A stretch of DNA of 64,000 bases from Escherichia coli (lineage in GTDB: Bacteria; Pseudomonadota; Gammaproteobacteria; Enterobacterales; Enterobacteriaceae): NCBI RefSeq assembly GCF_003991155.1, contig NZ_CP031293.1. One strand, given 5' to 3'. Position numbers and translations under genes: made by a program. The notes beneath the pieces are model-generated. The model saw only the letters and a list, made by a program, of their open reading frames with translations. It made no database searches and was not told the DNA's origin. This document shows positions 36,545 to 58,093 of this stretch, one piece after another (position 1 is the stretch's first letter; each line of letters begins with the position of its first letter).

Positions 36545-39070
36545 ATGCCTTTACGACGGTTCTCCCCAGGACTGAAAGCCCAGTTTGCCTTCGGCATGGT
36601 CTTTTTGTTCGTTCAGCCCGATGCCAGCGCTGCTGACATAAGTGCGCAGCAAATAGGTGGGGTGATTATTCCGCAGGCCTTCAGTCAGGCGCTCCAGGAC
36701 GGCATGAGCGTCCCGCTCTATATTCATCTCGCCGGTAGCCAGGGTCGCCAGGACGATCAGCGAATCGGCAGCGCTTTTATCTGGTTGGATGATGGACAGC
36801 TACGCATCCGGAAAATACAGCTGGAAGAGAGTGAAGATAACGCCAGTGTCAGCGAACAAACTCGACAGCAGCTGATGGCTCTGGCGAACGCCCCGTTCAA
36901 TGAGGCCCTTACCATCCCCCTGACTGACAACGCGCAGCTGGATCTCAGCTTGCGCCAACTGCTGCTGCAGCTGGTGGTCAAGCGCGAAGCGCTGGGCACT
37001 GTACTACGCTCACGTAGCGAAGACATCGGGCAGTCCAGTGTTAACACCCTCAGCAGTAATCTGAGCTATAACTTCGGCGTCTATAACAACCAGTTGCGTA
37101 ACGGCGGGAGCAACACATCCAGCTATCTGTCGCTGAATAACGTTACTGCACTGCGCGAACATCATGTGGTGCTCGACGGCTCACTGTACGGGATTGGTAG
37201 CGGTCAACAGGACAGTGAATTATATAAAGCGATGTATGAACGCGATTTTGCTGGTCACCGATTTGCCGGTGGAATGCTCGACACCTGGAACTTGCAGTCC
37301 TTAGGGCCGATGACCGCCATTTCAGCAGGGAAGATTTACGGCCTTTCCTGGGGAAACCAGGCCAGCTCCACCATCTTCGACAGCAGCCAATCGGCCACGC
37401 CAGTGATCGCCTTTTTACCGGCGGCGGGCGAAGTACATCTCACCCGTGATGGGCGACTACTAAGCGTTCAGAACTTCACCATGGGCAATCATGAAGTGGA
37501 TACCCGGGGTCTACCGTACGGTATTTACGATGTGGAAGTTGAGGTAATCGTTAACGGTCGCGTGATCAGCAAACGCACCCAGCGGGTCAATAAGCTGTTT
37601 AGCCGGGGGCGTGGTGTCGGTGCACCGCTGGCGTGGCAGATATGGGGCGGTAGCTTTCATATGGATCGCTGGTCGGAAAACGGGAAAAAGACGCGACCAG
37701 CCAAAGAGAGTTGGCTGGCAGGTGCCTCGACCTCCGGCTCACTGAGTACGTTTAGCTGGGCGGCAACGGGATATGGATACGATAATCAGGCGGTGGGTGA
37801 AACCCGTCTGACGCTGCCGCTTGGGGGGGCGATCAACGTTAACCTGCAAAACATGCTGGCCAGTGACAGCTCATGGAGCAACATCGCCAGCATCAGCGCC
37901 ACTCTACCTGGAGGCTTCAGTTCGCTGTGGGTTAACCAGGAAAAAACCCGCATTGGCAATCAATTGCGACGTAGCGATGCCGACAACCGTGCAATCGGCG
38001 GCACACTCAACCTGAACTCACTGTGGTCGAAGCTGGGTACGTTCAGCATCAGCTACAATGATGACCGCCGCTACAACAGCCATTATTACACGGCAGATTA
38101 CTATCAAAGTGTCTACAGCGGTACCTTTGGTTCGCTTGGCCTGCGGGCCGGTATTCAGCGCTATAACAACGGCGACAGCAGCGCCAATACAGGGAAATAT
38201 ATCGCTCTCGATCTCTCGCTACCACTGGGCAACTGGTTTAGCGCAGGGATGACCCATCAAAACGGCTACACCATGGCAAACCTGTCAGCACGCAAACAGT
38301 TTGATGAAGGAACCATTCGCACTGTTGGTGCCAATCTGTCACGAGCCATCTCCGGCGATACCGGTGATGACAAAACCCTCAGCGGTGGGGCGTATGCACA
38401 GTTCGACGCTCGTTACGCCAGCGGAACGCTGAACGTCAATAGCGCGGCGGACGGCTACATCAATACTAATTTGACCGCCAACGGCAGCGTCGGCTGGCAG
38501 GGTAAAAACATCGCTGCCAGCGGGCGGACCGATGGCAACGCTGGGGTGATATTCGACACTGGCCTGGAGAACGATGGTCAGATCAGCGCCAAAATCAACG
38601 GGCGGATTTTCCCGCTTAACGGCAAGCGTAACTATCTCCCGCTCTCTCCCTATGGAAGATATGAGGTGGAGTTGCAGAACAGCAAAAACTCACTCGACAG
38701 TTACGATATCGTCAGCGGTCGCAAAAGTCATCTGACTCTCTATCCAGGCAATGTCGCTGTCATTGAGCCAGAGGTGAAGCAGATGGTTACCGTCTCCGGT
38801 CGTATCCGTGCGGAAGACGGCACACTGCTGGCTAACGCACGGATTAACAACCATATCGGCCGAACCCGAACCGATGAAAACGGCGAGTTTGTCATGGACG
38901 TGGATAAGAAATACCCCACTATCGATTTTCGCTACAGTGGCAATAAAACCTGCGAAGTGGCACTGGAACTCAACCAGGCGCGCGGTGCCGTCTGGGTCGG
39001 TGATGTGGTCTGCAGCGGCCTCTCATCGTGGGCGGCGGTGACGCAGACAGGAGAAGAGAATGAGAGTTAA
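36545..39070 (+). CDS. ecpC: EcpC outer-membrane usher
   Basis: 841 aa; size and position typical of an usher. Confidence 0.9.
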
Positions 39071-40703
39071 CCTACTGATAGCGATGATAATCTTTGCGCT
39101 AATCTGGCCTGCAACCGCGCTCAGAGCGGCAGTGAGCAAAACAACCTGGGCGGATGCTCCGGCACGCGAGTTTGTGTTTGTCGAAAACAACTCAGACGAC
39201 AACTTTTTCGTCACTCCTGGCGGGGCGCTGGATCCGCGCCTGACCGGTGCCAACCGCTGGACCGGTTTAAAATACAATGGTTCAGGAACCATCTATCAGC
39301 AAAGCCTCGGCTACATTGATAACGGTTACAACACCGGCCTTTATACCAACTGGAAGTTTGATATGTGGCTGGAAAATTCACCAGTTTCATCTCCTTTAAC
39401 TGGCTTGCGCTGCATCAACTGGTACGCAGGGTGTAATATGACCACCAGTCTTATCCTGCCGCAAACCACCGACGCCAGTGGATTTTATGGCGCGACGGTG
39501 ACCAGCGGCGGCGCGAAATGGATGCACGGCATGTTGTCAGACGCGTTTTACCAGTATCTGCAACAAATGCCCGTCGGCAGCAGCTTTACAATGACCATCA
39601 ATGCCTGCCAGACCTCTGTGAACTATGACGCCAGCAGCGGCGCACGCTGTAAGGATCAGGCCTCCGGCAACTGGTATGTTCGCAACGTCACCCATACGAA
39701 AGCAGCAAATCTACGGTTGATAAATACCCACTCGCTGGCGGAAGTATTTATCAACAGCGACGGAGTACCGACTCTGGGCGAAGGGAACGCCGACTGCCGG
39801 ACGCAAACCATCGGCAGCCGTTCAGGATTAAGTTGTAAGATGGTTAACTATACCCTGCAAACAAACGGACTCAGCAACACCTCAATCCATATATTCCCTG
39901 CGATCGCCAACTCGTCGTTAGCCTCGGCCGTCGGGGCGTACGATATGCAGTTCAGTCTGAATGGCAGTTCATGGAAACCGGTGAGCAATACCGCCTATTA
40001 CTACACCTTCAACGAGATGAAGAGCGCAGACTCGATCTATGTTTTCTTCTCGAGCAATTTCTTTAAGCAGATGGTGAACCTCGGGATCAGCGATATCAAT
40101 ACCAAAGATCTGTTCAACTTTCGCTTTCAGAACACCACATCACCGGAGTCTGGCTGGTATGAATTTTCTACCTCCAACACGCTGATTATCAAACCCCGTG
40201 ATTTCAGCATCAGTATTATCTCCGATGAATATACTCAGACACCGTCGCGGGAGGGATATGTTGGCAGCGGCGAGTCGGCACTCGATTTCGGCTATATCGT
40301 AACCACCAGCGGTAAAACAGCTGCTGACGAAGTGCTGATCAAGGTGACCGGACCCGCGCAGGTGATTGGCGGGCGCTCCTATTGTGTCTTCAGCTCCGAT
40401 GACGGTAAGGCGAAAGTACCGTTCCCGGCGACGCTTTCCTTTATTACCCGCAACGGAGCTACAAAAACCTACGATGCCGGGTGCGATGATAGCTGGCGGG
40501 ATATGACCGATGCGCTGTGGCTGACTACACCGTGGACTGATATCTCTGGCGAAGTGGGGCAGATGGATAAGACCACAGTCAAATTTTCGATTCCAATGGA
40601 TAACGCCATTTCGCTGCGTACGGTAGATGATAACGGCTGGTTTGGCGAAGTCAGCGCTTCAGGAGAGATTCATGTTCAGGCGACGTGGCGTAACATTAAC
40701 TAA
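39060..40703 (+). CDS. ecpD: EcpD pilus tip adhesin
   Basis: 547 aa with signal peptide; start overlaps ecpC end. Confidence 0.9.
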
Positions 40704-41382
40704 GGCCCTGCTGACAGTGGTCTGTATGCTGGCGGCACCTTTGACACAGGCGATTTCGGTCGGCAATCTGACATTTTCGCTGCCGTCCGAGACTGACTTT
40801 GTCAGCAAACGTGTAGTGAATAACAACAAAAGCGCGCGGATATACCGTATTGCCATCAGTGCTATCGATAGCCCGGGCAGCAGTGAATTGCGCACTCGAC
40901 CGGTGGATGGTGAACTGCTTTTCGCCCCCCGCCAGCTGGCGTTGCAGGCTGGTGAGAGCGAGTATTTTAAATTTTACTATCATGGTCCACAGGATAACCG
41001 CGAGCGCTACTACCGGGTCTCATTTCGCGAGGTCCCCACTCGCAACCAGACAAGACGTAGCCCAACCGGCGGCGAGGTCAGCACAGAGCCGGTGGTGGTG
41101 ATGGATACCATTCTGGTAGTACGACCACGTCAGGTTCAGTTTAAATGGTCCTTCGACCAGGTGACAGGAACGGTAAGTAACACCGGCAACACGTGGTTTA
41201 AGCTACTGATTAAACCAGGATGTGATTCGACCGAAGAGGAAGGCGACGCCTGGTATCTACGTCCGGGAGACGTGGTTCATCAGCCTGAGTTACGTCAGCC
41301 GGGGAATCACTATCTGGTCTATAACGACAAATTCATTAAGATTAGCGATTCCTGTCCGGCTAAGCCCCCTTCGGCGGACTAA
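40672..41382 (+). CDS. ecpE: EcpE chaperone
   Basis: ORF 40627-41382; start placed at [15 protein letters not shown] (236 aa); overlaps ecpD 3' end. Confidence 0.85.
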
Positions 41383-41694
41383 GACTTATCCATCAGACGA
41401 GGGAAGAATTCCACCTCAGAGACTCAAAAATCGTTTAAATGATGTGGAAGCGATCGTCAATGTCACCTGTAACGATGAGCTTTCTCATATGCACACCACA
41501 GTGTTCAGGAGACACGGAAAGGTACCAGGCGGCCTGCTAACGAGTGGTTTCTTCACGAATTAGGACGTAAAATCGGTAACGGCTGGAAATCATTCAATAC
41601 TCACACTATCGAAAGTACACCAGCCAACCGCGATACGTCCCTGCATACGACGTACCGCAGTTCTCTTTACGATTTATAGCTGTACTGGTGAATT

Positions 41695-42024
41695 ATGAGC
41701 AATCTGAATCCATGCATGACGTGTGGTGCCTGTTGTGCATTTTTCCGCGTCTCTTTTTACTGGGCCGAAGCCGACGATGCTGGCGGTACCATTCCCGCCA
41801 GGCTCACTGAACAAATATCCCCTTTTCACCGATGCATGAGCGGTACCAATCAGAAAAACCCCCGATGTATTGCCCTTGCAGGAACACCGGGCAAAAATGC
41901 CTGCTGCACGATATATAAAAATCGATCTTCCACGTGCAGAGAATTCGCCATGTCTGGTGAGAACGGAGTCGTCAATGAGGCTTGCAATCGTGCAAGAGCT
42001 AAATACGGGCTGACACCGTTATAA
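41695..42024 (+). CDS. ykgJ: YkgJ, cysteine-rich zinc/iron-chelating domain protein
   Basis: 109 aa with CxxCxxCC and further Cys motifs; synteny between ecpE and yagU. Confidence 0.8.
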
Positions 42025-42231
42025 ATATGCAATAATTAATTGCACTGCCCCGCCAGCTATAATCGCGGGGCTTCGTTTTTCAGGGATAACAAAACCCGAA
42101 ACTTCTTCCATCTGCCAGCAACAATGCCTCTTCCTCTATAGTGTTCTCCGGATCTACAGCATCCTGAAGTAGCGCGATGTACTCACTGGCTATCTGCCAT
42201 CAGAAAGTTAAAAACAATGTTTTTAACCTAT

Positions 42232-42260
42232 AAAAATGGCGCTGTATTTGCGCCATTTTT
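42232..42260. terminator. bidirectional intrinsic terminator between convergent ykgJ and yagU
   Basis: AAAAATGGCGC-TGTATTT-GCGCCATTTTT: hairpin flanked by A-run and T-run, so it works on both strands. Confidence 0.6.
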
Positions 42261-42273
42261 ATCATTCAATGCA

Positions 42274-42888
42274 TTATCTGTTTGAGCCTAAAGGGATCTC
42301 AGGGTCTGGCTCATGAGTAATTCTGTTTCGTAAATCTCTGCGAATAATTTCAATGGACCAGAACCAGACTAAATGTCCAAAAATTTCAGAAACATTCTCA
42401 TACCACGGGAGATCAAACAGAGGTGGCGTCAGTCCCATGAGAGGGAATGAAATCATATGAACAAAAAGTTGGGCTAAAGCACCTGCCAGTAAGCCCTGCC
42501 AGAGTTTAATTTTTGGAAATACTTCAGCGACCACACAATAACCGACAGCAAACACTATCGAAAAGATAATGTGCGTAACACCAACCCAGTTAAAGACATG
42601 CCCGGCAAAGGTATAAACAGCCGCATTGGGATCTGTCAGCCCCAGCCAGTCTCGAAGAAAAATATACGGAGGATTGAGAAAATTACGGGAGCAATCAATT
42701 TGCCCAGCAGCCCTGATTAATGATTCCGGACCACACGCTGCATTAAACATATCCACCGGGCTACGTGGCGGCAATGGAACTTCAGCCCCCCACTTCACAA
42801 ATGCGGAAACAACGCCAGCAATCAGCCCAATGAATGCAGCAAGACCATAACGTCTGCGGTTCGGTGGAGTTTGTTCAAATATATTCAT
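42274..42888 (-). CDS. yagU: inner-membrane protein YagU (DUF1440)
   Basis: 204 aa with several TM helices; synteny. Confidence 0.85.
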
Positions 42889-43095
42889 ATTTACCCTGTT
42901 TGTTTAATTATGTTGTACACCTCTTCAGGAGTATTCATAAAACAAGACAAATGTAAAGAACTGTATTGTTTTGTATAACCACATGGTTACCTAATCGCCA
43001 ATTAATATAAGCTCCATTATTTCTCCATATTTTTATGTTAGAAGTGACAAGGAGAAATGTAATGTTTCTCTCAGAGAATATAAATCATTCCTTTT

Positions 43096-43121
43096 GCCCA
43101 CCTTAATGGTGGGCTTTTTTA
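43096..43121 (+). terminator. orphan terminator-like hairpin (GCCCACC-TTAAT-GGTGGGC + TTTTTT)
   Basis: Perfect 7-bp GC-rich stem followed by T6; no obvious upstream + strand gene, so possibly left over from lost DNA. Confidence 0.4.
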
Positions 43122-43276
43122 TGCAAAACCTGAACGTCCTGTGGTATTCCTCTGGCATAATGATTTTCGCGATTAACCAACAACCAGACCAGCAAAGACG
43201 CCACCACAAGCACAGCAACATCCTTCAGGCTTGCCACACCCCATACGTGCGGCTCAAAGCCGCCATGGCATATTAA

Positions 43277-43474
43277 TCCGCTTGCCATTTTCGAACAGCT
43301 GATTGGTTTAGTCCGGTGTTTCCCTGCTTGCACTTAAAAATGAGCGGATGGGAAACTCTCGAAATGGTTCGTCGATATGCTCACCTTTCAGTCAGGCATT
43401 TCACCGCGCACGCGAGCAAAATCAAAGGCACAAGAGGAGAACGTAGTTTACTGAAATGTGAGGTAACTTATTGA
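43277..43474 (+). pseudogene. possible C-terminal fragment of a tyrosine recombinase (integrase remnant)
   Basis: Frame translates ...GWETLEMVRRYAHLSVRHF..., resembling the catalytic-Tyr C-terminal motif (ERYAHL) of phage integrases; no N-terminal part present; ends 6 bp before the attR-like repeat. Confidence 0.3.
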
Positions 43475-43480
43475 TTTAAA

Positions 43481-43496
43481 TGGTGCGATAATAGGA
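43481..43496. repeat. attR-like imperfect direct repeat of the thrW 3' end (TGGTGCGATAATAGGA)
   Basis: Matches the tRNA 3' end at 63061-63077 (TGGTGCCGATAATAGGA) except for a 1-nt deletion; same orientation. Confidence 0.55.
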
Positions 43497-43557
43497 ACAA
43501 TACACATAGGCGATAAGCTTTGTTTTTGTTGCCTTTTTTATTGTTCATTTTTTATAG

Positions 43558-43580
43558 ATACCCCCAAAAGTACCCCCATA
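43558..43580. repeat. island-terminal 23-mer ATACCCCCAAAAGTACCCCCATA (putative arm-type integrase site)
   Basis: 22 of 23 identical to 62927-62949 at the other island end, same orientation. Confidence 0.5.
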
Positions 43581-43697
43581 TCTTTTTCCGCCCCTGAAAT
43601 TTGGTTGTTATTCATACAGCATATCAGGCGGTAACGCTCTCCCTTTAACCCACTTATTGTATGATAGTGCTATCCCACAATAAGGAATCAGCCAGCC

Positions 43698-44057
43698 ATG
43701 AGAATGACCAGTCGCAAAAAAGAGATACTTAGCTACTTTGAACCGGATAACCTCGAATGGGTGACTGGTGAGATTGGTGCGCCGCCGTTCGATGTGTCGG
43801 GTGTGGCCTACCTGCTTCATGGCATGGTGTCGTTCGATAAGCGTCACCAGCTCGAATCAACCCGGCGAACACTGGAAAGCATGGTTGCTGGTGGACTGCT
43901 TGAGCGGGTGACAGTGTATGAATCGCGCCAGATACGGCGCGGCGGTGATACTAACGCAACGGTCGTGCGCTACGGTTTACCCGGTCAGTGCGCTGTTATG
44001 CGCGATACTGGCGGCGCTGACAACGCAATATCAGGTGAATACATGCGGGTCAGTTAA
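43698..44057 (+). CDS. hypothetical protein (119 aa), first island gene at the attR side
   Basis: ORF with AAGGA SD; upstream inverted repeat CTTATTGT..ACAATAAG; 3' end overlaps the convergent gene by 8 bp. Confidence 0.5.
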   Translation: MRMTSRKKEILSYFEPDNLEWVTGEIGAPPFDVSGVAYLLHGMVSFDKRHQLESTRRTLESMVAGGLLERVTVYESRQIRRGGDTNATVVRYGLPGQCAVMRDTGGADNAISGEYMRVS

Positions 44058-44592
44058 TAGCCTGCAATCTGTCGTTGATGCGGCTCAGGTCGTAAACCCG
44101 GCGTTCAATATCCAGCATCAGGAAATTGTGGATCTCGGCCTGCTCAGGATTATCAGACTCTCTGGCCTGTAATAGCAATTCATTGTAACCATGCAAGCCG
44201 CCTGAGTTTTCCGCCGGGGTGGTGCCTTTCCCACGCAGGCAGCTAATGGGCTGATTACTCGTATCGTGTGTTTGCTTCTCCAGCACAATGACGCAATCCC
44301 ACCAGTCGCCAAAGTCATACGTGTAAACCAGCTTGTCACCCTCATTCTGGAGCGCCGCCCATAGTGGCGTGATTGCCGCGTTACCCATGCTTTCATCCTC
44401 ACCCCATACGCGATACTCGCTACCTGGATCACCTTTACGCCCTTTCTCGAACATATACAGGTGTTCGTCATTCCAGCCAAAAGCTAACTGGATCACGGCA
44501 TGAAGTTTACTAAAGGGGATTTGCTCTGGAACCAGCACACGCCGCCATATAGGTGGTTTGCTGTCTCGGATGGTTATCTTTAGCTGGTACAT
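44050..44592 (-). CDS. pRiA4b ORF-3-like family protein (180 aa)
   Basis: N-terminal motif YQLKITIRDSKPPIWRRVLVP as I recall for the PRiA4_ORF3 domain family; function unknown. Confidence 0.6.
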   Translation of the reverse strand: MYQLKITIRDSKPPIWRRVLVPEQIPFSKLHAVIQLAFGWNDEHLYMFEKGRKGDPGSEYRVWGEDESMGNAAITPLWAALQNEGDKLVYTYDFGDWWDCVIVLEKQTHDTSNQPISCLRGKGTTPAENSGGLHGYNELLLQARESDNPEQAEIHNFLMLDIERRVYDLSRINDRLQAIN

Positions 44593-44712
44593 GCAAATCC
44601 TGAATAAATGCGAATCGGAAGGATAACGATACTGACGTACTCACAATTCTGTAAAGGTGAATAAAGGAAATTTGCTTAATACGCATAAGTTACATGTGGA
44701 ATAATCCCATAT

Positions 44713-44898
44713 CTACCTGCGCGGCGCTGGCTTCTTCCACTGGTAGGCAGGTGCTCGCATCATTTCGCGGAACCTGTCGCGCCGGGCTATATCGGCATTA
44801 ACTGATCGTTCTATCTCCCGTTGATCTGCCTGTGTAAGCTGGTGGCCTCCGTGCTCAAGTTTGGCGATGGTCAATAAGGCTATTTCGCGTGGTGTCAT
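44713..44898 (-). CDS. hypothetical small protein (61 aa)
   Basis: ORF with AGAGGG SD-like sequence; no recognisable domain. Confidence 0.35.
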   Translation of the reverse strand: MTPREIALLTIAKLEHGGHQLTQADQREIERSVNADIARRDRFREMMRAPAYQWKKPAPRR

Positions 44899-45123
44899 AC
44901 GTCATACCCTCTGGAAGGATGAAACACGCCCGGATTAAATTTCATTTTTCGCGGGTATAAAAAAACGATGGGGCGGGCAGTCCCGGATAGTCAGGGCTGT
45001 AGAGATTTGACTACCCCCTCCCCACTGGATTCAGGTTACTGCTATTCCGTTAAGCGCTGCTTACGGGGATAGCTGCGTTGTGATTTTGACCATTCAGGTC
45101 GCCGCTATTTCCTCACCGATTGG

Positions 45124-45156
45124 GTGCTACGCGCGCGCGTACTTGTCCCGAAATAC
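45124..45156. repeat. copy 1 of repeat TGCTACGCGCGCGTACTTGTC..AAATA.CAG (contains palindrome ACGCGCGCGT)
   Basis: Near-identical to 46518-46550; related partial copies at 46755-46770 and 46807-46835. Confidence 0.6.
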
Positions 45157-45195
45157 CAGAAACCGCCAGCCAGAGGATGATTTCCCTCTGGTGGT

Positions 45196-45477
45196 CTACC
45201 TTTGCCTCTTGCCGCCATTTAACCGGAAGGCGTTACCGTTCGGTTGCGCTATCCCCATGCGGTGTTGCGTTTCGGTAACAGCTTTATGCAGGTCGCCAAA
45301 TTCCTCAACCTTCACGGGCGGGCGCTTCACGTTCTCCAGACACGTTTCACGGCGGCGCTTTATCCATTCCCGATCATCGTCCTCGGTGCATAACAGCATG
45401 ACTTCCATCCATCGTGCGGCAGCTCTCCGGTATAGCCCTTTTGACTCCAGCTCTTCAGCTTTCCTGTCCCTTATCAT
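45196..45477 (-). CDS. PerC-family transcriptional activator-like protein (93 aa)
   Basis: N-terminal motif MIRDRKAEELESKGLYRRAAARWMEVM resembles PerC/Pch family as I recall it; GAGG SD and TATAAT -10 upstream. Confidence 0.5.
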   Translation of the reverse strand: MIRDRKAEELESKGLYRRAAARWMEVMLLCTEDDDREWIKRRRETCLENVKRPPVKVEEFGDLHKAVTETQHRMGIAQPNGNAFRLNGGKRQR

Positions 45478-45513
45478 TTCTGCCTCTCAGATTATATAGA
45501 TAAGCAAAAAGGT

Positions 45514-45634
45514 GTTGGTTCAGTTGGTTCAGTTGGTTCAATTTGTAAAGATCGTTGTTTTTATTGTGTTTTTTCTGAAATGTTGAACCAACATCAACTC
45601 ATTTTGAACCAACACAGCCCAGCTCTGAACCAAC
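45514..45634. repeat. iteron module A: 3 tandem GTTGGTTCA, AT-rich spacer, 3 copies of the complementary TGAACCAAC
   Basis: Copies at 45514-22, 45523-31, 45532-40 and complementary copies at 45584-92, 45605-13, 45626-34. Confidence 0.7.
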
Positions 45635-45736
45635 AACACAGCGATAGCTTTGTGATTGGTCCGTTATTTTCTGGCTGATATTTGAGCGTATAACAGTGTT
45701 ATACAGTGGTATACTGTATGGATATTACTCACTGAT

Positions 45737-46192
45737 ATGGTCTTTGCAATGAGCAAATCTAATCTGATCGCGTTCCGCATCCCATCTGAATTGCAGGATG
45801 AGTTTAATCGGTCTGTTCTCGCTTCTGGAGGGGATAAAACCTCCTGGCTTGTTGATGCGATTCGCATGAAGCTGGGACAGCCGGAAAAGTCTATTGATTC
45901 ACGAATGCTTGGGCTGGTGGAGCGCATGGAAAAAGCCGCTGCGTCGCTTATTGCCGGAAAGCCGAACATCCCACCAAAGCCATATAACGAAACGGCAGTT
46001 ATAAAGATCATTGCCGATACCATCCAACAGGGATTTGATAATGGGCGTGTGATAGCTGAACGGATCAATGAAGCAGGCTATCAAACAAAAGCTGGTAAAG
46101 CGTGGGATAAAGATATTTACAGCGCGTGGAAGCGTCAGGGAAGCAATGCTGAAAAGTTAAAAGCGGTGATTGATTGTAAGGTCAGCGTATAA
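45737..46192 (+). CDS. putative ribbon-helix-helix (CopG/Arc-like) DNA-binding protein with extended C-terminus (151 aa)
   Basis: N-terminal IAFRIPSELQDEFNRSV...KTSWLVDAIRMKL resembles an RHH beta-strand plus helix; start may be the Met at 45749. Confidence 0.45.
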   Translation: MVFAMSKSNLIAFRIPSELQDEFNRSVLASGGDKTSWLVDAIRMKLGQPEKSIDSRMLGLVERMEKAAASLIAGKPNIPPKPYNETAVIKIIADTIQQGFDNGRVIAERINEAGYQTKAGKAWDKDIYSAWKRQGSNAEKLKAVIDCKVSV

Positions 46193-46271
46193 ACATGAGT
46201 GCCCATTGGAAAGCTGCTTGGGCCAATACCTTTATACACCAGCAGGTGGTGACGATAGGTGAGGATTAGGC

Positions 46272-46493
46272 ATGAAAGGCAGAACGCCACACATTGAACA
46301 TCAAGCCAACCACTTCTCGGATGTTCGCAATGAGATGATTGCCATTCGCGGTGATATGCACGGCTTGGAGCGTCGAATTATTGATAAGATTGATGAAAAT
46401 AGAGATAAGGCCAGTGAAAATCAAAAGTGGATCATCGGCCTGTTGATTTTATCAATTCTTATCCCGCTACTTATCGCATTGGTCACAAAATGA
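46272..46493 (+). CDS. small tail-anchored membrane protein (73 aa)
   Basis: GAGGA SD; charged coiled-coil-like N-terminus and single C-terminal TM helix (WIIGLLILSILIPLLIALV). Confidence 0.5.
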   Translation: MKGRTPHIEHQANHFSDVRNEMIAIRGDMHGLERRIIDKIDENRDKASENQKWIIGLLILSILIPLLIALVTK

Positions 46494-46517
46494 ATATCCA
46501 ATGTGTATGCTGTCGAT

Positions 46518-46550
46518 GCTACGCGCGCGTACTTGTCGCAAAATATCAGG
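46518..46550. repeat. copy 2 of the ACGCGCGCGT-ACTTGTC repeat
   Basis: TGCTACGCGCGCGTACTTGTCGCAAAATATCAG, near-identical to copy 1. Confidence 0.6.
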
Positions 46551-46754
46551 CAAAGGCCAGATTCAGAAATTCGTGATAACCACCAGCACAACATGAGAGG
46601 TCATGTAACGCGATTTATCACACCAGATACATGTGATTGGTGTACCCGCATAAAACATCGTCATAGCGCGTCCTGTGCGCATATACGCCGATAATCAACA
46701 CATCACCACCACTCTGTCTCATGTAGAGAACAGTTTTATGGTACTCCCCTCCAT

Positions 46755-46835
46755 CGTGCGCGTACTGGTCGGACGTAGTTGCAAAATTTTTTGCAACTGA
46801 TACCCCTCGCGCGCGTACTGGTCACGAAATTGGTG
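46755..46835. repeat. copies 3 and 4 (partial) of the GCGCGCGTACTGGTC repeat flanking palindrome GTTGCAAAATTTTTTGCAAC
   Basis: CGTGCGCGTACTGGTC at 46755-46770; CGCGCGCGTACTGGTCACGAAATTGGTG at 46807-46835; 20-bp perfect palindrome at 46777-46796. Confidence 0.5.
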
Positions 46836-47036
46836 TTTTGCTGTGGCAGTGATATCAGAAAAATCTTCCTGTTTCACATAAAGCGGATATGCGCGTAATG
46901 TAACGGCCCCATCAACTGGGAGCGGATTTGAGCCCGAATGTGTAGGCAATGTCACTTAACGTTTGTCGCATACCTTCCAGAAAAAGCGATTCATGAATAA
47001 TAGGGGCATGAATGCCCGGCGTACCGGGCTTATTAG

Positions 47037-47735
47037 TTAATTTGGTGCTTTAGGGTCAACATTAAAAGTTATATCACCTTCTGTATTTTTCCCGGCATAG
47101 CTAGCGGCTATTCTCGCCAACCCTTTGTAATCAGCAATTCCATCAGACTGTTGCGAGACGACTGAGCTACCAACTTTCCATAACATATTAATCTGCCGAT
47201 TATTGAGATAAGCCTTGGCATCAAACGACTGGAGTATCACCCCTGCGCCGTAGAACGTGTCCGTCACAGTTGTGTTATACGCGCCAGTAATTCCATAAGT
47301 AGGCGTATAAACTGTTGTTGCCGTTCCAGTGGTATTAGCTGTACCGTAGCCACCACCATAACTATTGAACGTGGTGTTCGAGTTTCCGTACGTTGTTGCT
47401 GAGCTCACACCAGTTTGCCCGTATATTGGGATGGTTACATTACGAGTATTTGAAATGGCCCCGCTTCTCAAAAAGTTCAAGAGAATTACCTGGTCAGCCA
47501 ATTTTTCATCTTTAACTTGTGTATATCCTTGGCTTGATAAACTGGCGGCTACTACCGTAGCTATTTGAGTGTATTCAATCTGTTTGGTGTTCCAAAGTTC
47601 TTGGCTTGCGGGGATGATCAAGAACTTCTTACCGACAGATTGCCCGGAAGATAAAGCATTGACCGTTACTAACGGTTTTTGTACGCATCCAGCCAATAAT
47701 GACAGGGATAATATTAAAAGAAGATTTTTAATCAT
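47037..47735 (-). CDS. lipoprotein (232 aa) with Gly/Thr/Tyr-rich central region
   Basis: Lipobox LLAGC in signal peptide MIKNLLLILSLSLLAGCVQ; low-complexity middle; tandem hairpins downstream of the stop. Confidence 0.7.
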   Translation of the reverse strand: MIKNLLLILSLSLLAGCVQKPLVTVNALSSGQSVGKKFLIIPASQELWNTKQIEYTQIATVVAASLSSQGYTQVKDEKLADQVILLNFLRSGAISNTRNVTIPIYGQTGVSSATTYGNSNTTFNSYGGGYGTANTTGTATTVYTPTYGITGAYNTTVTDTFYGAGVILQSFDAKAYLNNRQINMLWKVGSSVVSQQSDGIADYKGLARIAASYAGKNTEGDITFNVDPKAPN

Positions 47736-47885
47736 GATAATCTCACCTAAGAATTGCGTGGTTATAAATTATCATCACTGTAAGCGAATGTAAGCCACAG
47801 GCTCGTAATGTGATATGGAATTTTGATAGTTGGCTCAATATCAGTATGCCGTCCTTGGCTATTATGGTTTTGTTAGTTAGAGCGT

Positions 47886-50612
47886 CTATTCCCATTCGCT
47901 AACATCTTTCATGCCACTGAGGGTAGCTACAATCCCGGCCCTTGTCAGTTTCACGAATTCTTCAGCCCCAACGGCATCACGAATTGCTTTCATGGCAATT
48001 TTATTGGCCGAAAATCGTTTCTCTGCTGCGGCGATCGCTGCTGGTGATGCCCCTGCGCGCACTGCTTTTGTAGCTTCCTGAACGGCTTTCTCTATCGCAT
48101 ATCGACCACTTCTTGTCGCCCCAATCTTAGCCACAGCATTTCTTAGCGCGCCACCAGCAACCAAACCACTAATCGAACCAATTACACCACCGCCAAAGCC
48201 TCCAGCGATCGCACCTGACTGTTGAACTCCGTTCATAATCACGCCGACGATCTTTGGAAGGCCTGAATCGAGCGTTTTGAGAGCCTCAGTTGTTCTTCCC
48301 GTGCGCTCTACGTATCGCTGCGGTCTGGTACTGGCTTTAGCGAGTACACCGAACTCTTTCATCATTCTACCGAGATCTGGCGCATGACGACTGATGGCGT
48401 TTACATTCTGCTGGGTCATGAGCTTGGCAAAATACTGGATACCTGACTCTTCACCGATTCCTCCCTTCTCTCCCTGCGCCACAGCATGCTGAAGAATAGA
48501 TGCTATTGCAGGTTGGCGTTCTGCTTCCGGCAGCGCGGAGATAAGACGGTGAAAAGCTCCCGTTCCAGTGTTTGCGGATGCCTTAAGCGTATCGGCACCT
48601 TTTCTTACCATAGCGTCTGATGCGAGATCTCGACCAAAAACAGATTCGGCATTTTGTTTGGCGATAATGTAACTTTTAGAGAGATCGTTAGCTTTCTGCC
48701 ATTCTGTGAGGAAGTTTCCTTTTTCAGCCATGATGCGCATGTCATCAGTGATAGCTCTGCGCATTTCTCCGGCAATCCGGGCGGCATTGGCCTTACCTGC
48801 CCGGGTGTTTGCTTGTTCAGCATCAGCAAACTTAGCACGCCATGCCTTCATCCCGTCGAAGGTTATGCCGCCACCTTGGTTGTTGGCAGCCTGAAACTGT
48901 TTCATCTCCGGGCTGAGTGGAACATTGGCTGCTTTTTCTGCTTGGACGACAGCCATCCCATTACTCATTTTCATCCTTTCGCGTGGCATCGTGCTTCGCA
49001 GTTCTGCCCATGCCATATTCTCTGCTGTTTTCATATCACTGAGGCTCGCGATGATGCGCTCTTTAATTGCTGCGCTTTTTTCTGATGCGCTTCCAGACTC
49101 AGCACCGAAATCAGACAACTGCTTATTCAACTTTGAGGATATTTCATTGAAGGCCGTAAGGTGAGCATCCTGAACATTCCCAGGAGTTGATGCCAGAACA
49201 CCTTCTGCTTGGGCAATTCCACGACTACCTGAGCGCATTCCAGGCGTCAGGGTGTTGATATTAATACCAGTGATTTTCGCCGCCTTAGCGACATCATCTC
49301 TGACGTTTGATGCCTGCGATGCGATATGCTCTCGGCCTACGGCAGAACGCGCTGCTTTCGATACATCATTGGCGGTTTCCAGAGTATTTGCTGCCCCTAA
49401 CACATGGCCTGATTGATTTGTATTACTCCGCAATACATCTCGCATTACGTCACTGGCTGTCTGTCCGCTCTTTATTAAAGCGCGTGCTCCTAGCGATCCT
49501 GCTAGGCCAATACCTGTCTCTTTTGCTAGGTCTTCTGGGCTGATCTGCCCGTTCTTTTGGGCGTTCACCAATGTACCTGGCAGGTTTTCTGCCAACATAC
49601 TAGCCACCTTTGTGGCCGCACGTTCAGCACGTGGAGCGTTGGCAACTGAAGAAGCTGCGGTAGCTGCCTTTCCTGCACCTAATCCTGTAATAAGGTAAGG
49701 TGCTAGCTGCTCACCAGCCTGCGCGTATGGATCTGTAGGTTGGTCTACTGGGCGAAAGACAGGTGATATGGGCGTGTATGTGCCATCACCCACACCAAGC
49801 TTCTGAGCTGCCCATGCTCCGGCTGATTGCGCCGCATTGACTACCCCCACGCCTGCGTCCATTACATCAAACGGTATATTAGCAATCCCTCTGGCCATCT
49901 GCTCTGGCGCAGCTTTCAGTCCTGGCGAAAGATATTCCATCTCAGGATTAAGGTTAGACTTGGCTACTTGCTGCTGCGGTTCCCCGGCATTTTCATCGGC
50001 GAGAAACTGAGCTCTTTTCTGCTCCCATGAACTGGCTGTTGGTAGTCCTGCTTCTATGTTCTTAAATTGCTGACGTTTTGCTTCCCATGCAGAAATATCT
50101 CCCACCTGAGAGATTTCTTTATCAAGCTCTGAGTAGTCAGGCTGCTGAAGATTGCGATGTTGACTGGTTTGTGCAAACTGCAAGATTTCACTGTCATCAG
50201 GGATTATTCCGGCATCTGCAAATTTACTTACGTAATTAGCCGTTTCATCTGGCAGTGTAGATTTACCGTTTCTGACGGCATTAATACGAGCATAGCCAGA
50301 ATTATACCCAGCCAATGCCATACCTATATCACCAAATCGCTTCATTCCTTTATTGAGATGGTTTGCTGCGATATCCATTTGCTTTTCAAATGGCAGTGAG
50401 CGCGGATCTGTTCCACGATAACCAGCATCACTCATTACTGAGGGCATCAGTTGAGCAAATCCTCTAGCTCCTTTCGGTGACTCGGCACTTCCGTTACCAC
50501 TAGATTCATTGCCAACTAATGTTTCCATCGTCCCTGATGGGAAACCATATTTTTCATCGAGATGACGGGAATAGGCTTTCTGTTTTTCTGTCAGTTGTGC
50601 CATCATTGCCAT
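47886..50612 (-). CDS. large protein (908 aa) with N-terminal lytic transglycosylase (SLT) domain and long alpha-helical Ala/Lys-rich body
   Basis: SLT motifs near N-terminus (GNESSGN...ESPKGARGFAQLMP...ALAGYNSGYARI); start overlaps upstream gene stop. Confidence 0.8.
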   Translation of the reverse strand: MAMMAQLTEKQKAYSRHLDEKYGFPSGTMETLVGNESSGNGSAESPKGARGFAQLMPSVMSDAGYRGTDPRSLPFEKQMDIAANHLNKGMKRFGDIGMALAGYNSGYARINAVRNGKSTLPDETANYVSKFADAGIIPDDSEILQFAQTSQHRNLQQPDYSELDKEISQVGDISAWEAKRQQFKNIEAGLPTASSWEQKRAQFLADENAGEPQQQVAKSNLNPEMEYLSPGLKAAPEQMARGIANIPFDVMDAGVGVVNAAQSAGAWAAQKLGVGDGTYTPISPVFRPVDQPTDPYAQAGEQLAPYLITGLGAGKAATAASSVANAPRAERAATKVASMLAENLPGTLVNAQKNGQISPEDLAKETGIGLAGSLGARALIKSGQTASDVMRDVLRSNTNQSGHVLGAANTLETANDVSKAARSAVGREHIASQASNVRDDVAKAAKITGININTLTPGMRSGSRGIAQAEGVLASTPGNVQDAHLTAFNEISSKLNKQLSDFGAESGSASEKSAAIKERIIASLSDMKTAENMAWAELRSTMPRERMKMSNGMAVVQAEKAANVPLSPEMKQFQAANNQGGGITFDGMKAWRAKFADAEQANTRAGKANAARIAGEMRRAITDDMRIMAEKGNFLTEWQKANDLSKSYIIAKQNAESVFGRDLASDAMVRKGADTLKASANTGTGAFHRLISALPEAERQPAIASILQHAVAQGEKGGIGEESGIQYFAKLMTQQNVNAISRHAPDLGRMMKEFGVLAKASTRPQRYVERTGRTTEALKTLDSGLPKIVGVIMNGVQQSGAIAGGFGGGVIGSISGLVAGGALRNAVAKIGATRSGRYAIEKAVQEATKAVRAGASPAAIAAAEKRFSANKIAMKAIRDAVGAEEFVKLTRAGIVATLSGMKDVSEWE

Positions 50613-51922
50613 CCCTTAAGTTTTGCCTGATAGTAACTTTCCGGCAGATAGCCATGTGCGGTCACATAATCCTTAACCAGTGAAGGATCCTGCAACAGCA
50701 TTTTGGTATCAGTTTCTTCGTCCTTAGATTTGGTTACAGGAATACCGAGCCCGGCAATCTGTCGTTTCTGCATTCGAATAATTACGTCCTGCGCTTTATT
50801 CAACTCTCGCAAAAATGCCTCATTGCTGGTTGCTGACTTAATGCCATTTTGAGATTGCATAAGGGCAGCCCTTTCCCCTTCGGTTGGGTTAGAGCCAAAA
50901 GTCCCTTTGAGGCTAGGCAGAATAACCTTTAGGTTGTATTCATCAGCTTTGGCGCGTAGGCTTCGTGTGTCTTCTGCTACATCAGGAAGGAATCCAAACC
51001 CCAGCGTCAGGGGGTTATAGTTCTGCGAGCGGGTAACGGCCGAAGGATGTTTCCCTACAATTCCCGCCAGTTCATGACCCACTTCAAGCGCAGAGTTCAA
51101 GGAGTCGATGTTACCTACAACAGTATTAATTTTATCGTTCATCTTCTCCACTTTCGCCTGCTGTACCTTGCTCAGTTCAGCATTGAGCTTGTCTCTCTCG
51201 ATGTCATTTTGAGCACGTCCAAGTCGTGCTTTCAGAACCATTTCTCTCGTGCGTAGTTGGTTATCGGATAGGACTTTGAACTGCTCCATATCGAGACGTC
51301 GATTACCCTGTTCCGCATTAACCTGAGCATTATATGCGGATGTATCTGCGTTCTGCTGTGCAATGCTCTGCCCTTGCTGCTTCTCTTGAACACTAAAGTA
51401 ACTATTTGGATCAGCATGGAGGTGGATGAGGTCAGTGATTCTGTTGAATTCCTGTGGGTCATTCTGCCAAGACTGATAAACCTCTTCAGCAGGAAGACCA
51501 AATCGCTGTAATACTGGATTTGCCTGCTGAATGGCCTTCTGCATGGTCAGTGGATCTCCAGTTTGTGACGCAAGACGCAGATTCATGGCAGCGTCAGCGG
51601 TCTGTCGATTTTGCTCAGCATCAATGAATCCCATCTGTTTTTGAGAATCAGCCATAAACTGGGGATACTGGGCCATTAACTTCTGCACGCCAACACGATC
51701 ATTATTAGCTACCGCACTACCCAACCGTGCCTGATATTCTTTTAACTGCTGGGAAATTTGCGCCTGCTGATTAATCTCAGCAACGCCTCTTAGCCCCTGT
51801 AGCGCCATTAAACCTACGTTTGGCTGCTGCTGATACTGCACAGGCTGAGGAACGGAAGAACGAGGAGCATTATCATTTTGCGGTGCCATGCTAGGCAGCC
51901 CGCCAAGTTGCCATGTCGCCAT
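50603..51922 (-). CDS. Gln-rich coiled-coil protein (439 aa), co-transcribed with the SLT protein
   Basis: Long ORF, translationally coupled on both sides; Q/A/N-rich helical composition. Confidence 0.7.
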   Translation of the reverse strand: MATWQLGGLPSMAPQNDNAPRSSVPQPVQYQQQPNVGLMALQGLRGVAEINQQAQISQQLKEYQARLGSAVANNDRVGVQKLMAQYPQFMADSQKQMGFIDAEQNRQTADAAMNLRLASQTGDPLTMQKAIQQANPVLQRFGLPAEEVYQSWQNDPQEFNRITDLIHLHADPNSYFSVQEKQQGQSIAQQNADTSAYNAQVNAEQGNRRLDMEQFKVLSDNQLRTREMVLKARLGRAQNDIERDKLNAELSKVQQAKVEKMNDKINTVVGNIDSLNSALEVGHELAGIVGKHPSAVTRSQNYNPLTLGFGFLPDVAEDTRSLRAKADEYNLKVILPSLKGTFGSNPTEGERAALMQSQNGIKSATSNEAFLRELNKAQDVIIRMQKRQIAGLGIPVTKSKDEETDTKMLLQDPSLVKDYVTAHGYLPESYYQAKLKGWQ

Positions 51923-52599
51923 TAGAATCCAAGCCCCCCAACAAGACCAATAAGCCCACCACCAATAGCGCCGGCCGCAGTTCCTATTCCAGGAACAACG
52001 GAACCAAGTTGCGCACCCGCTAAAGCGCCTGATGCTGCCCCACCAATACCACGCGCAAGACTGGATGGCTGCTGCGCCTGACCTGCACGAATAGCGCCAA
52101 GCCCCTGCAAGAGTTGTCCGGTATTATTGGCGTAGTTTTGCCCTGCCGTTGCCTGCCCTGATGCCGCATTCATCCCGACATTTAGCAGGTTTCCATAATT
52201 TTGCATTTGCCCACTAAGCCAATTGTTATAAAGCATGGGCGCAATGGAAGATAACTGGTTACTGGTAGCTGTTGAGCCAAGCCCCCCGGTAGCTTCTGCT
52301 GAGACAAGGTTCTGATAACGGGCCTGATCTGCCTGTGTTTTATATAAACCAGAACCAAAGAAATCATTCGCGGCTTTATTCTGCCCTTCCAGAGTCATCA
52401 GTCCTTGCAGTTGTTGTAAAGCAGGCAATCCGACTTCTGCATACGGCTTGAGATTATTCATCACCGTATTCCACTGCTCGCGCTGCAAATCAATTGCCTG
52501 CTGCTGGGCCTTCGCCTGAGCTTTAGAGGCACCACCATCACCGCCTTTTTCGTATACGGCACGATTGAGATGTTTATGAGCTATATGGGTAATTAACAT
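51922..52599 (-). CDS. Gly-rich protein (225 aa) with C-terminal Gly/Ala hydrophobic tail
   Basis: C-terminus GIGGAASGALAGAQLGSVVPGIGTAAGAIGGGLIGLVGGLGF; coupled to neighbours. Confidence 0.65.
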   Translation of the reverse strand: MLITHIAHKHLNRAVYEKGGDGGASKAQAKAQQQAIDLQREQWNTVMNNLKPYAEVGLPALQQLQGLMTLEGQNKAANDFFGSGLYKTQADQARYQNLVSAEATGGLGSTATSNQLSSIAPMLYNNWLSGQMQNYGNLLNVGMNAASGQATAGQNYANNTGQLLQGLGAIRAGQAQQPSSLARGIGGAASGALAGAQLGSVVPGIGTAAGAIGGGLIGLVGGLGF

Positions 52600-53054
52600 T
52601 CGCTGAATTCCTTATATTGTTGCCGAGTTAACTGATAAAGCGTTACGCCGACGGGTTTACCACATCTGATATAAGCATCATCAAGGTGACCAACACGGGT
52701 AGCGCCAAGCAAACGGATAATTGCCCGTCCATATTTTGTGGTGTCAGGAACCATAGTGATGCTGTTAAGGAATGGTGAGTTTTCGAGAAGCCATTTGCAG
52801 AATAATCGATGCCCTTGCAGTGCATATTCACCACGGAATCCGGGGTCGTACACCGCATGGCATTCAACAACGCTATGCCAGAAGTTACGCACTTCATGAA
52901 CGCCAGCCAGCACTAATCCTTCGTAGATGCCGAGATATACCGCATCAGGCTTGATGTAGTACGTGTGCCCCGGCTCAACAATATTTTCGGTATTGCCTGG
53001 CTCGTTAAGAAAGGCCTGTAATCGCACAGGGTTATCAATAAATTTTAGTTCCAT
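52593..53054 (-). CDS. hypothetical protein (153 aa), first large gene of the SLT operon
   Basis: ORF overlapping the downstream gene start; no recognised motif. Confidence 0.6.
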   Translation of the reverse strand: MELKFIDNPVRLQAFLNEPGNTENIVEPGHTYYIKPDAVYLGIYEGLVLAGVHEVRNFWHSVVECHAVYDPGFRGEYALQGHRLFCKWLLENSPFLNSITMVPDTTKYGRAIIRLLGATRVGHLDDAYIRCGKPVGVTLYQLTRQQYKEFSEC

Positions 53055-53070
53055 GCGATGCCATCCATTT

Positions 53071-53232
53071 TCACATACAGCCTGCCAGCGCCTTATCTAT
53101 TAACCCTCGTGCAATTTCATGCAGAGTTGGCGCTACTCCAATTCCTGATTTTTTACGCTGCTCTTCCTGAATTTTCTTTATCGCTTCCATTTGCTTCTCA
53201 CTTATCAATACCGGCTTTACTGAAATAGCCAT
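53071..53232 (-). CDS. small putative DNA-binding protein (53 aa, possibly ribbon-helix-helix)
   Basis: ORF 53071-53361; start placed at MAISVKPVL with GGGGG SD 4-5 nt upstream; LexA-like box just upstream. Confidence 0.45.
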   Translation of the reverse strand: MAISVKPVLISEKQMEAIKKIQEEQRKKSGIGVAPTLHEIARGLIDKALAGCM

Positions 53233-53248
53233 AACGCCCCCCTTAGAA

Positions 53249-53264
53249 CTGTATAAAACAACAG
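53249..53264. promoter_or_regulatory. candidate LexA (SOS) box CTGTATAAAACAACAG
   Basis: CTGT-N8-ACAG with AT-rich centre; about 17 bp upstream of the 53-aa gene start; nearby TATAAT-like hexamer on the minus strand. Confidence 0.5.
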
Positions 53265-53681
53265 TTATTATAGTTTCACAAATCGCAATATTCATCATCG
53301 TAATTGCAAAATATGAAACAAATAGCACAAAAAAATGCCACCGCTCAGTAGCTGGTGGCATCGTTCTGTGTGTCAGGTTTTGACAGGTTTTTTATGGACT
53401 CTAAAAACTATATTTATGGTATCGCATTACTCTTCACGGCAGGTGCTTTTCAGTTCTGCCCTTGCTTCTGGCTCCATTGGTAATTTGATTCGCGATCAGC
53501 TATGCGGATGGTTTGCTGAACAGGCATAACAACTTCTCAGAGGCTGTTTTTTGAACTACGAAAATTTCGTAGTGCTCACTTTCAAAAACGTCACGCCCTT
53601 GTACACAGGATTTTACGAAAGTCTCGTAAAACACTCTCTGATGCCAGCCAGGTGTTGTGCGCATCAATTCAGTCACATTGT

Positions 53682-53792
53682 GTCGGTTCAAAATACCGTG
53701 TTGTTGGTTCAGTGTTGGTTCAATAAAAAGAATAAAATCCTTATAAAACAATACACTTTACAAATTGAACCAACTGAACCAACTGAACCAAC
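53682..53792. repeat. iteron module B: inverted, diverged copy of module A
   Basis: GTCGGTTCA 53682-90, GTTGGTTCA 53704-12 and 53714-22, then tandem TGAACCAAC at 53766-74, 53775-83, 53784-92; spacer begins with reverse complement of the module A spacer (ATTTGTAAAG). Confidence 0.7.
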
Positions 53793-53817
53793 ACCTTTTC
53801 TACGCACATGAAGAAGC

Positions 53818-56577: not shown

Positions 56578-56932
56578 CGTACCCCACGTGGTCTATAGCG
56601 TTTGCGATATGGCTAACCAGCATCTGCCACTTGGTTATTCCGTAATCAGTCAGCATGCCATCATTGTTTAGCCACATATCAAATTCAGCGGTTGTCGCAA
56701 GTTTCCACTTATCGCCGTGGACAGTCCTCATTGCTGGGTACATGAATGCGCAAATCAGATCACAAACATCTGACGGCTTCAGAGATGTAGTAATGGTGCG
56801 TCCCTCTGGCGTCTGAATTGCCATTTTCTCTTCACCAGTAGAATGAAGGTTATGAATCCACACAGCACCAGCAATCTTTGCCACCTGCTCTCCGATTGCG
56901 GAGCTAAGCGCCATTTCTGCATTTTCACGCAT
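56561..56932 (-). CDS. hypothetical protein (123 aa), overlaps primase start
   Basis: ORF in coupled chain; 3' end overlaps primase start by 17 nt. Confidence 0.55.
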   Translation of the reverse strand: MRENAEMALSSAIGEQVAKIAGAVWIHNLHSTGEEKMAIQTPEGRTITTSLKPSDVCDLICAFMYPAMRTVHGDKWKLATTAEFDMWLNNDGMLTDYGITKWQMLVSHIANAIDHVGYGDAKH

Positions 56933-57266
56933 GAGAACCTCCCGCTACAGTTGCGCCCATGTCATTAACCATGCTTTGCCATATCTCACGCCCGACGTCA
57001 GTCAATCCGTCCTTAGTGACGCAACGTTCAAGAAGCTCGATCCCCACGGTTTCCCACTGCGGGTAGAACACTTTCATGGCTGCCAGTGTGTAGCTATCGA
57101 TCAGGCTGCGAACGCCTTTTACTCCATTGACGATTTCCACACGGACGGCCTCGCCGTCCGCATCAACCATGAAATAGTCCCCGCCGCTGGTGGAGGTAAT
57201 GTGGTTATACAGTGCCGACGCATACTTATTTGCCAGCGCATTCAGTCGGAAATTTTTAGTAATCAT
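56925..57266 (-). CDS. hypothetical protein (113 aa)
   Basis: ORF in coupled chain; 8-nt overlap with downstream gene. Confidence 0.55.
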   Translation of the reverse strand: MITKNFRLNALANKYASALYNHITSTSGGDYFMVDADGEAVRVEIVNGVKGVRSLIDSYTLAAMKVFYPQWETVGIELLERCVTKDGLTDVGREIWQSMVNDMGATVAGGSHA

Positions 57267-57276
57267 GGCTCCATCC

Positions 57277-57879
57277 TCAGTGCGTCACTGGTTCCGCTGG
57301 CATGCCGTTTTCATTCAGTTCAGCTATAAAGCTGTTGTGAAGTTCAGCAAGCGTTTCACGCCCAAATGGAGTCAGTGCTCCTTGTTCCACATCCATCATG
57401 GCTCTGTAGAAAATAATGGCGCGTTCTGTGCCAGACTCGATGCCAAAACGTTCTATCATCGCGCCCTCAATGTTGTTTGCCATAGCGAGGCGCTCTGCTA
57501 CTGGATACAGCGGCATGGCGACGATGCCGTTGGAATAAACAGCCACTTCGGAAGGATTGCCAGTATCATCAATGATGCTGACAGTGCCGTTTTCCTCTCT
57601 CATTTCCAGCATGAATACTGTTGCGATCAGCCATCTCCACATAATGACGTTATGCTGTGATGTGTAATCGAAATATCCCTGGTTACCGCCATCGGCAATA
57701 GCGAGATGTATTGACATACCTTCATCTGGTTTATCGTCATAATCCCCGGCATCCAGACGATTTACGGCATCAATATATGAGATGGCCTCAACGCGTTCTG
57801 TCATGCCATCGTTGCTGCGGTACATGATGTTTACGCCGTCAGGCGTTGCTTCTGCATGGAAAGTTAAGAAATTATTCAT
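57277..57879 (-). CDS. hypothetical protein (200 aa)
   Basis: ORF 57277-57984; start placed at MNNFLTFHAEA where ATG overlaps upstream stop (CATGAATAA). Confidence 0.55.
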   Translation of the reverse strand: MNNFLTFHAEATPDGVNIMYRSNDGMTERVEAISYIDAVNRLDAGDYDDKPDEGMSIHLAIADGGNQGYFDYTSQHNVIMWRWLIATVFMLEMREENGTVSIIDDTGNPSEVAVYSNGIVAMPLYPVAERLAMANNIEGAMIERFGIESGTERAIIFYRAMMDVEQGALTPFGRETLAELHNSFIAELNENGMPAEPVTH

Positions 57880-58093
57880 GTTTCGCCTCGCCTGAATGAT
57901 TCTGTAACTCATATTTGCCCAACAATTCGTCCGCTTCCTGAATAGCTTCTGGTACGCCATTGAGCAGTGACATAACCGCGCCAATCATTAACTTGTCTCT
58001 GTTGCTGGGGCTGGCCCCTTCAAGCCAGAACCCTAAAACAGTCTGAACCTGTTCGATGCGACATTGCGCTTCAATGAGCTGGATGTTGGTCAT
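57872..58093 (-). CDS. hypothetical small protein (73 aa)
   Basis: Start overlaps upstream stop (ATGA). Confidence 0.5.
   Translation of the reverse strand: MTNIQLIEAQCRIEQVQTVLGFWLEGASPSNRDKLMIGAVMSLLNGVPEAIQEADELLGKYELQNHSGEAKHE

Follow-up and report, generated by a model that had tools for sequence, protein, structure and literature searches.

The tRNA gene thrW of Escherichia coli is an integration hot spot (PMC3306764, PMC2629481, PMC2951348, PMC7545054), used by SfX-type and P22-type phages (PMC3306764, PMC2629481) and occupied by PAI III536 (PMC7545054). Integrase and tRNA genes may face each other there in the convergent "OC" arrangement, as exemplified by thrW-intH (PMC2951348). The attP annotated in phage HK446 ("similar to thrW tRNA gene and ptwF") starts at the int stop codon. 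From that codon to the thrW core the distance is 14 bp, with int convergent on the tRNA sequence, and this layout is the same in HK446, E. coli 536 and E. coli strain 142.

The window analysed here, 64,000 nucleotides of E. coli contig NZ_CP031293.1, contains thrW as its sole tRNA gene, at the far end of a 19.6-kb insertion; between yagU and this insertion sits the stub of an integrase gene (Table 1). Like the HK446-type int-attP region, the stub presents a stop codon, a 14-bp spacer and a thrW 3′ core, convergent with the tRNA. Sequence comparison with K-12 reveals that homology stops at position 43049, inside the yagU-paoA intergenic region, and that a 447-bp block therefore replaces paoABCD-yagP. 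We conclude that 43297-43496 very probably represents a fossil attL junction, no longer functional, that dates from an old lambdoid prophage at thrW, most of which had been deleted before the present island arrived.

Table 1. Features around thrW and the integrase remnant, numbered from the first base of the window
Feature	Position	Strand	Remarks
ykgJ	41695-42024	+
yagU	42274-42888	-
447-bp non-K-12 block	43050-43496		in place of K-12 paoABCD-yagP
Left part of the 447-bp block	43050-43169	.
Intrinsic-terminator-like hairpin, GCCCACC-TTAAT-GGTGGGC + T6	43096-43121	+	terminator scan
Lambdoid b-region gene fragment, C-terminal 44 codons (phrog_1443/34165)	43170-43297	-	5-bp deletion
Integrase 3′ remnant, codons 321-387	43297-43466	+	SfX/HK446-type tyrosine integrase, by alignment
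Former catalytic tyrosine codon, TAT	43376-43378	+	aligned with Tyr348 of HK446 Int
Spacer, 14 bp, int stop to tRNA 3′ end	43467-43480	.	as in HK446 attP and E. coli 536
Displaced copy of thrW 3′ end plus 6 downstream bases	43475-43496	-	distal att repeat of the present island
Island in thrW, 19.6 kb, separate from the old remnant	43497-63054	.	missing from strain 142
Island gp16-like DNA-transfer protein, 908 aa	47886-50612		N-terminal SLT transglycosylase
Island gp20	50603-51922
Island gp7	51922-52599
Island gp14-like	52593-53054
Island primase/helicase	53818-56577		Zn-ribbon, Toprim and DUF927 domains
Island P4-type integrase, complete	61681-62895	-	Arm-DNA-bind_3, Phage_int_M and Phage_integrase domains
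thrW, intact tRNA-Thr(CGT)	63061-63136	-	ARAGORN; proA comes next

The integrase remnant and its lesions

The peptide LEMVRRYAHLS is encoded at 43358-43390 (+), within an ORF at 43316-43474 (+) that translates as MFPCLHLKMSGWETLEMVRRYAHLSVRHFTAHASKIKGTRGERSLLKCEVTY and ends with TGA at 43472-43474. A preliminary description of this DNA had likened it to the catalytic-tyrosine end of a phage integrase and proposed a comparison with integrase families, and similarity searches bear out the assignment. Querying a phage collection of 50,697 records by tblastn matched 254 of them significantly, the best hits being annotated integrases (83.6% identity, E 7e-16). Shigella phage SfX and the Escherichia phages HK446, mEpX2, HK75, HK542, mEp213 and mEp043 head the list, with identities of 82-84% and E values from 7e-16 to 3e-15. 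By blastn, window positions 43297-43496 match the 3′ end of HK446 int together with the spacer and attP core (E 3e-49), and 177 of the 232 columns of the DNA alignment to HK446 are identical, gaps counted.

Full-length relatives of this integrase match PF00589 at E 9e-35. The 52-aa ORF itself gives no Pfam match, and a 71-aa conceptual repair, which aligns with profile positions 138-170 of 172, scores 16.6 bits (E 0.0068), below the gathering cut-off of 27.1 bits because the remaining piece is so short. The repaired peptide shows 84% amino acid identity both to HK446 Int and to the PAI III integrase of E. coli 536. The stub is thus a derivative of the tyrosine recombinase family and not a functional member of it.

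The preliminary description let the integrase fragment begin at 43277; its C-terminal identity holds, but the homology begins at 43297, at int codon 321. A MAFFT alignment that carried int homology further to the left was rejected, that stretch being 82% identical to a phrog_1443 gene. Judged by these alignments, 43297-43466 is the decayed remainder, about 67 codons, of the end of an SfX/HK446-type lambdoid integrase gene. Part of it is already annotated: RefSeq lists an "integrase" pseudogene in strain E50 at the equivalent of 43312-43423.

Codon-wise alignment to HK446 Int locates the lesions. Three codons have become stops, namely W322 (TGA, 43300-43302), Q325 (TAG, 43309-43311) and L383 (TGA, 43452-43454), and there are deletions of 2 bp after 43337 and of 29 bp after 43422. 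The ancestral stop codon TAA is retained at 43464-43466, 14 bp ahead of the repeat. The preliminary description placed the end of the frame 6 bp before the repeat, which is correct for the TGA of the frame-shifted ORF, 6 bp from the 16-mer TGGTGCGATAATAGGA, and not for the ancestral stop. The inactivating lesions are common to the window, strain 142 and, in the 5′ half only, the B2 strain R3.

A complete catalytic set consists of Arg, Lys, His-x-x-Arg, His/Trp and Tyr; the stub keeps just two of these positions, Trp (GGW) and Tyr (RRYAHL). The homology starts downstream of the HDLRHT box, and four of the six catalytic residues are gone. Codons 1-320 and xis are missing, a phrog_1443 fragment standing upstream in their place, and the arm-binding and core-binding domains are both lost. 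With 320 codons and four catalytic residues lost and the frame interrupted, no working integrase is left; the stub is unable to encode one.

K-12 offers another possible source, as CP4-6 occupies thrW in that strain and intF adjoins the thrW-fragment pseudogene ptwF (PMC2951348). IntF, a P4-type enzyme, resembles the stub in being a tyrosine recombinase tied to the thrW locus, and the preliminary description had named intF as an example for comparison. However, tblastn of IntF against the region gave a best E value of 2.7, on the wrong strand, and blastn returned only random short words; moreover, IntF diverges from ptwF, whereas the stub converges on its tRNA copy. In the absence of any detectable similarity by either program an IntF-type identity is refuted, and we hold it to be almost certain that the stub is no relic of a CP4-6/IntF-type integrase.

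The tRNA repeat and the present island

The sequence TGGTGCGATAATAGGA at 43481-43496 is one C short of the thrW 3′ end, TGGTGCCGATAATAGGA, at 63061-63077. The thrW 3′-end pattern has only two sites in the window, with 0.00 expected from 100 shuffles. Strain 142 (NZ_CP048337), which lacks the island, carries yagU, the integrase pseudogene, an intact thrW and proA in that order. It matches window positions 38889-43496 and 63055-64000, collinear on both flanks at 98-99% identity. On strain 142 the two flank matches overlap by 23 bp (TTTAAATGGTGCCGATAATAGGA), a stretch found at each end of the island, from which it follows that the island (43497-63054) duplicated 23 bp when it entered thrW at its 3′ end. 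The stub is older than the island, since strain 142 keeps it against an intact thrW. The preliminary description, which had proposed aligning the thrW regions of other strains, regarded the repeat as a separate scar of the older element; this view has to be given up, for the repeat is the distal att copy of the present island, that is, the displaced 3′ end of the old thrW.

The stub directly adjoins the distal repeat, and might for that reason be counted as part of the 19.6-kb island or as cargo brought in with it, the boundary then lying further to the left. We consider this highly improbable. The same stub lies beside an intact thrW in the island-free strain 142 and falls outside the 23-bp duplication; the island already has a complete integrase of another family beside thrW, just 25% identical over 130 aa to HK446 Int; and the block is present in about 1,299 genomes as against only 19, among 5,426 complete E. 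coli genomes, that possess the junction with this island. The stub is the old downstream flank of thrW and lies outside the island. The boundary of the present island is accordingly set at 43496/43497, and the stub shows where the old, outer limit of the thrW hot spot lies.

The island itself has a satellite-like gene set. It includes a block in P22 gene order (Table 1), and it also encodes an AntA-domain protein and an Ash-family protein; no capsid or tail genes were seen within 43497-63054. Close DNA matches to the ejection-protein block are nearly absent from the phage collection (7% coverage).

DNA between yagU and the integrase remnant

The minus-strand fragment immediately upstream of the stub is 82% identical at the DNA level to phage ev243 and its relatives (E 6e-34), with PHROG matches at E 4.6e-13 and 1.1e-6. 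Its junction with the int stub, at 43297/43298, displays 1-2 bp of microhomology. RefSeq records a minus-strand "hypothetical protein" at about 43103-43333 (WP_061092846.1 in strain E50, WP_000146240.1 in strain R3). This ORF is chimeric, a frame-shifted phrog_1443 C-terminus running into unrelated DNA, and probably no real gene; annotators should be warned that the entry (window equivalent 43103-43288) represents a chimeric remnant.

For the left part of the block, 43050-43169, a search of the phage collection for its source gave no match, and E. coli genomes have it at virtually no other locus. It contains the orphan terminator hairpin that the preliminary description had cited as support for lost flanking DNA. 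The structure is real (43096-43114, dG -15.2 kcal/mol, z -3.6, plus strand only), its 7-bp stem, with six GC pairs, being followed by T6 as in a G+C-rich stem-loop with a T-run, and it lies inside the non-K-12 block; it is not tied to any particular lost gene. Upstream of it on the plus strand there is no intact gene, just an ORF of 14-23 codons. As a sign of lost flanking DNA the hairpin is plausible. An Rfam scan of 42600-43800 returned only sub-threshold terminator-type matches, from the hairpin, and assigned no family, and the terminator scan found no thrW terminator on the minus strand within the stub.

A Shine-Dalgarno-like AAGGAG (43049-43054) precedes a 14-codon ORF, MFLSENINHSFCPP (43063-43107), the stop codon of which falls in the loop of the plus-strand hairpin.

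Distribution, history and described counterparts

Of the 5,426 complete E. coli genomes, 1,299 contain 43050-43172, almost always as a single copy, and about 1,297 contain 43040-43300. Carriers of the window type include the B2 strains UTI89, LF82 and O25:H4 and an ST648 strain. A second, K-12-type stub is present in about 3,875 of the 5,426 genomes, so that the two forms together would account for some 95% of genomes, provided that both sets are largely disjoint. A scan of one genome per bacterial species for exact matches to a junction-spanning 22-mer gave no convincing match outside E. coli, the lone hit being a contig assigned to a Deltaproteobacteria MAG and otherwise without similarity to the window; from this weak test we gained no evidence that the junction is older than E. 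coli.

Further remnants occur at the same site. In the B2 strain R3 (4464-4638 of its locus) the stub is a mosaic: as far as the equivalent of 43386 it agrees with the window type, and from there on it is a different int allele, which reads ...HLAPNHLTEHAR*IDSILNPSVPNLSQSKNKEGINDV*. Next come a longer fragment of thrW and an IntF-like integrase pseudogene. Another stub of the same int gene, 204 bp long, abuts the intact thrW on the island side in EcPF18 (locus 3498-3701), strain 103 (2991-3194) and strain 1162C. Its 5′ breakpoint (HK446 locus 2497) is just 4 bp from that of the window type (about 2501), the upstream DNA being unrelated, and it is seemingly independent of the window type. This closeness could be due to chance, to a recombination hot spot or to a constraint on losing the P′ arm. 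Evidently thrW has been occupied repeatedly.

HK446 has a 20-bp direct repeat, ATGGCACAAATACGGCACAA / ATGTCACAAATACGGCACAA, at 2649-2668 and 2866-2885 of its locus, flanking the attP core, with one copy inside int. These repeats are candidate arm-type Int-binding sites.

Such observations raise the possibility that the stub has been retained as working DNA, either as the P′ arm of an old attL, where integrase arm sites or homology would aid landing and stacking at thrW, or on account of an adjacent conserved block coding for a small RNA or peptide. The placement of ATGGCACAAATACGGCACAA in the int 3′ end and on the other arm is that of arm-type sites, and the K-12-type remnant starts almost exactly at this 20-bp repeat. 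Two seemingly independent remnants, of the window and EcPF18 types, have breakpoints 4 bp apart; tandem integration at an attL has been documented for SfI and SfX (PMC3306764); and 43050-43172, which holds the Shine-Dalgarno sequence, the 14-codon ORF and the terminator, is at least 99% identical in 1,194 of its 1,299 carriers. However, the 29-bp deletion of the window removes one of two tandem GGCACAA units, the core copy in the window is short of one base and no longer beside a tRNA gene, and no Rfam family matches at the stub region. Vertical inheritance by itself accounts for the conservation, and the breakpoint coincidence is statistically weak because there are just three or four remnant types. 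Retention as working DNA is in our opinion unlikely. It is likewise unlikely that int stubs beside thrW, as P′ arms of fossil attL sites, are still bound by SfX/HK446-type integrases or act as homology anchors. Were this true, the so-called "attB" at thrW in E. coli would in reality be attL-like, and would favour some phages and islands over others in landing and stacking at this site.

We therefore return to the fossil attL junction of a largely deleted prophage. An SfX/HK446-type phage would have integrated at thrW, and the 3′ end of int would have come to lie directly against the rebuilt tRNA gene, because int ends 14 bp from the attP core that copies thrW and converges on it; extant examples show this geometry after integration. 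A presumed single large internal deletion would have stripped away nearly the whole prophage and joined int codon 321 to the tail end of a b-region gene (43170-43297), and point mutations and small deletions then wore down the remainder. Much later, an element with a P4-type integrase (43497-63054) entered the thrW 3′ end, duplicating 23 bp and shifting the working thrW 19.6 kb away; the int stub and the 3′ end of the old tRNA gene stayed behind as its distal flank.

The order and orientation of the phrog_1443 fragment relative to the int stub are those expected after one internal prophage deletion, and we infer that both pieces come from one prophage. Against a single prophage, the phages of the collection that carry a phrog_1443 gene use a different integrase, for example that of ev243 at a tRNA-Arg site. 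Against the deletion model, a search for the distal attR of the old prophage at 43049/43050 and in the yagU-paoA intergenic region of K-12 gave only chance thrW matches of 10-11 bp, and 43050-43169 has no phage match. Integration probably took place more than once in the distant past, and the succession of events is uncertain, because the K-12 remnant is about 18% different and keeps bases that are deleted here. The contention of the preliminary description that an earlier, different element once occupied thrW and was mostly deleted is nevertheless upheld by the empty site of strain 142, the SfX/HK446-family int, the unrelated P4-type integrase of the island and the phage-gene fragment immediately upstream.

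The stub is an ordinary prophage relic, a textbook integrase pseudogene at a tRNA hot spot, and already annotated as such in RefSeq. By itself it matters little, its practical value lying in annotation. That a lambdoid int stub in one of two forms stands beside the outermost thrW copy in about 95% of complete genomes, if the two sets are largely disjoint, is mildly informative on the history of the locus and will not surprise the specialist.

Compared with described systems, the stub is closest to the phages SfX, HK446, mEpX2, HK75, HK542, mEp213 and mEp043, with 83-84% amino acid identity over the last 57 or so alignable residues. It differs from the SfX/HK446 int in comprising codons 321-387 only, with three stops and the 2-bp and 29-bp deletions, and from the whole module in lacking xis and the N-terminal and central domains. 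The integrase at the edge of PAI III536, which is 99% identical to HK446 Int, likewise lies 14 bp from thrW and converges on the tRNA; unlike the stub it has remained intact, at 384-385 aa (PF00589 E 9e-35), and an xis-like HTH gene lies upstream of it. The yagP/ptwF junction of K-12, at the distal end of CP4-6, is like the window in having an int 3′ stub, here directly against the thrW-fragment pseudogene ptwF: at about 297206-297290 of NC_000913.3 there is an unannotated remnant, some 65 bp long, of this int 3′ end (...NGTNTAQEE...). It differs from the window type in being shorter and about 18% diverged and in keeping the bases that the window type has deleted, and its neighbour is yagP-paoABCD, whereas that of the window stub is yagU.
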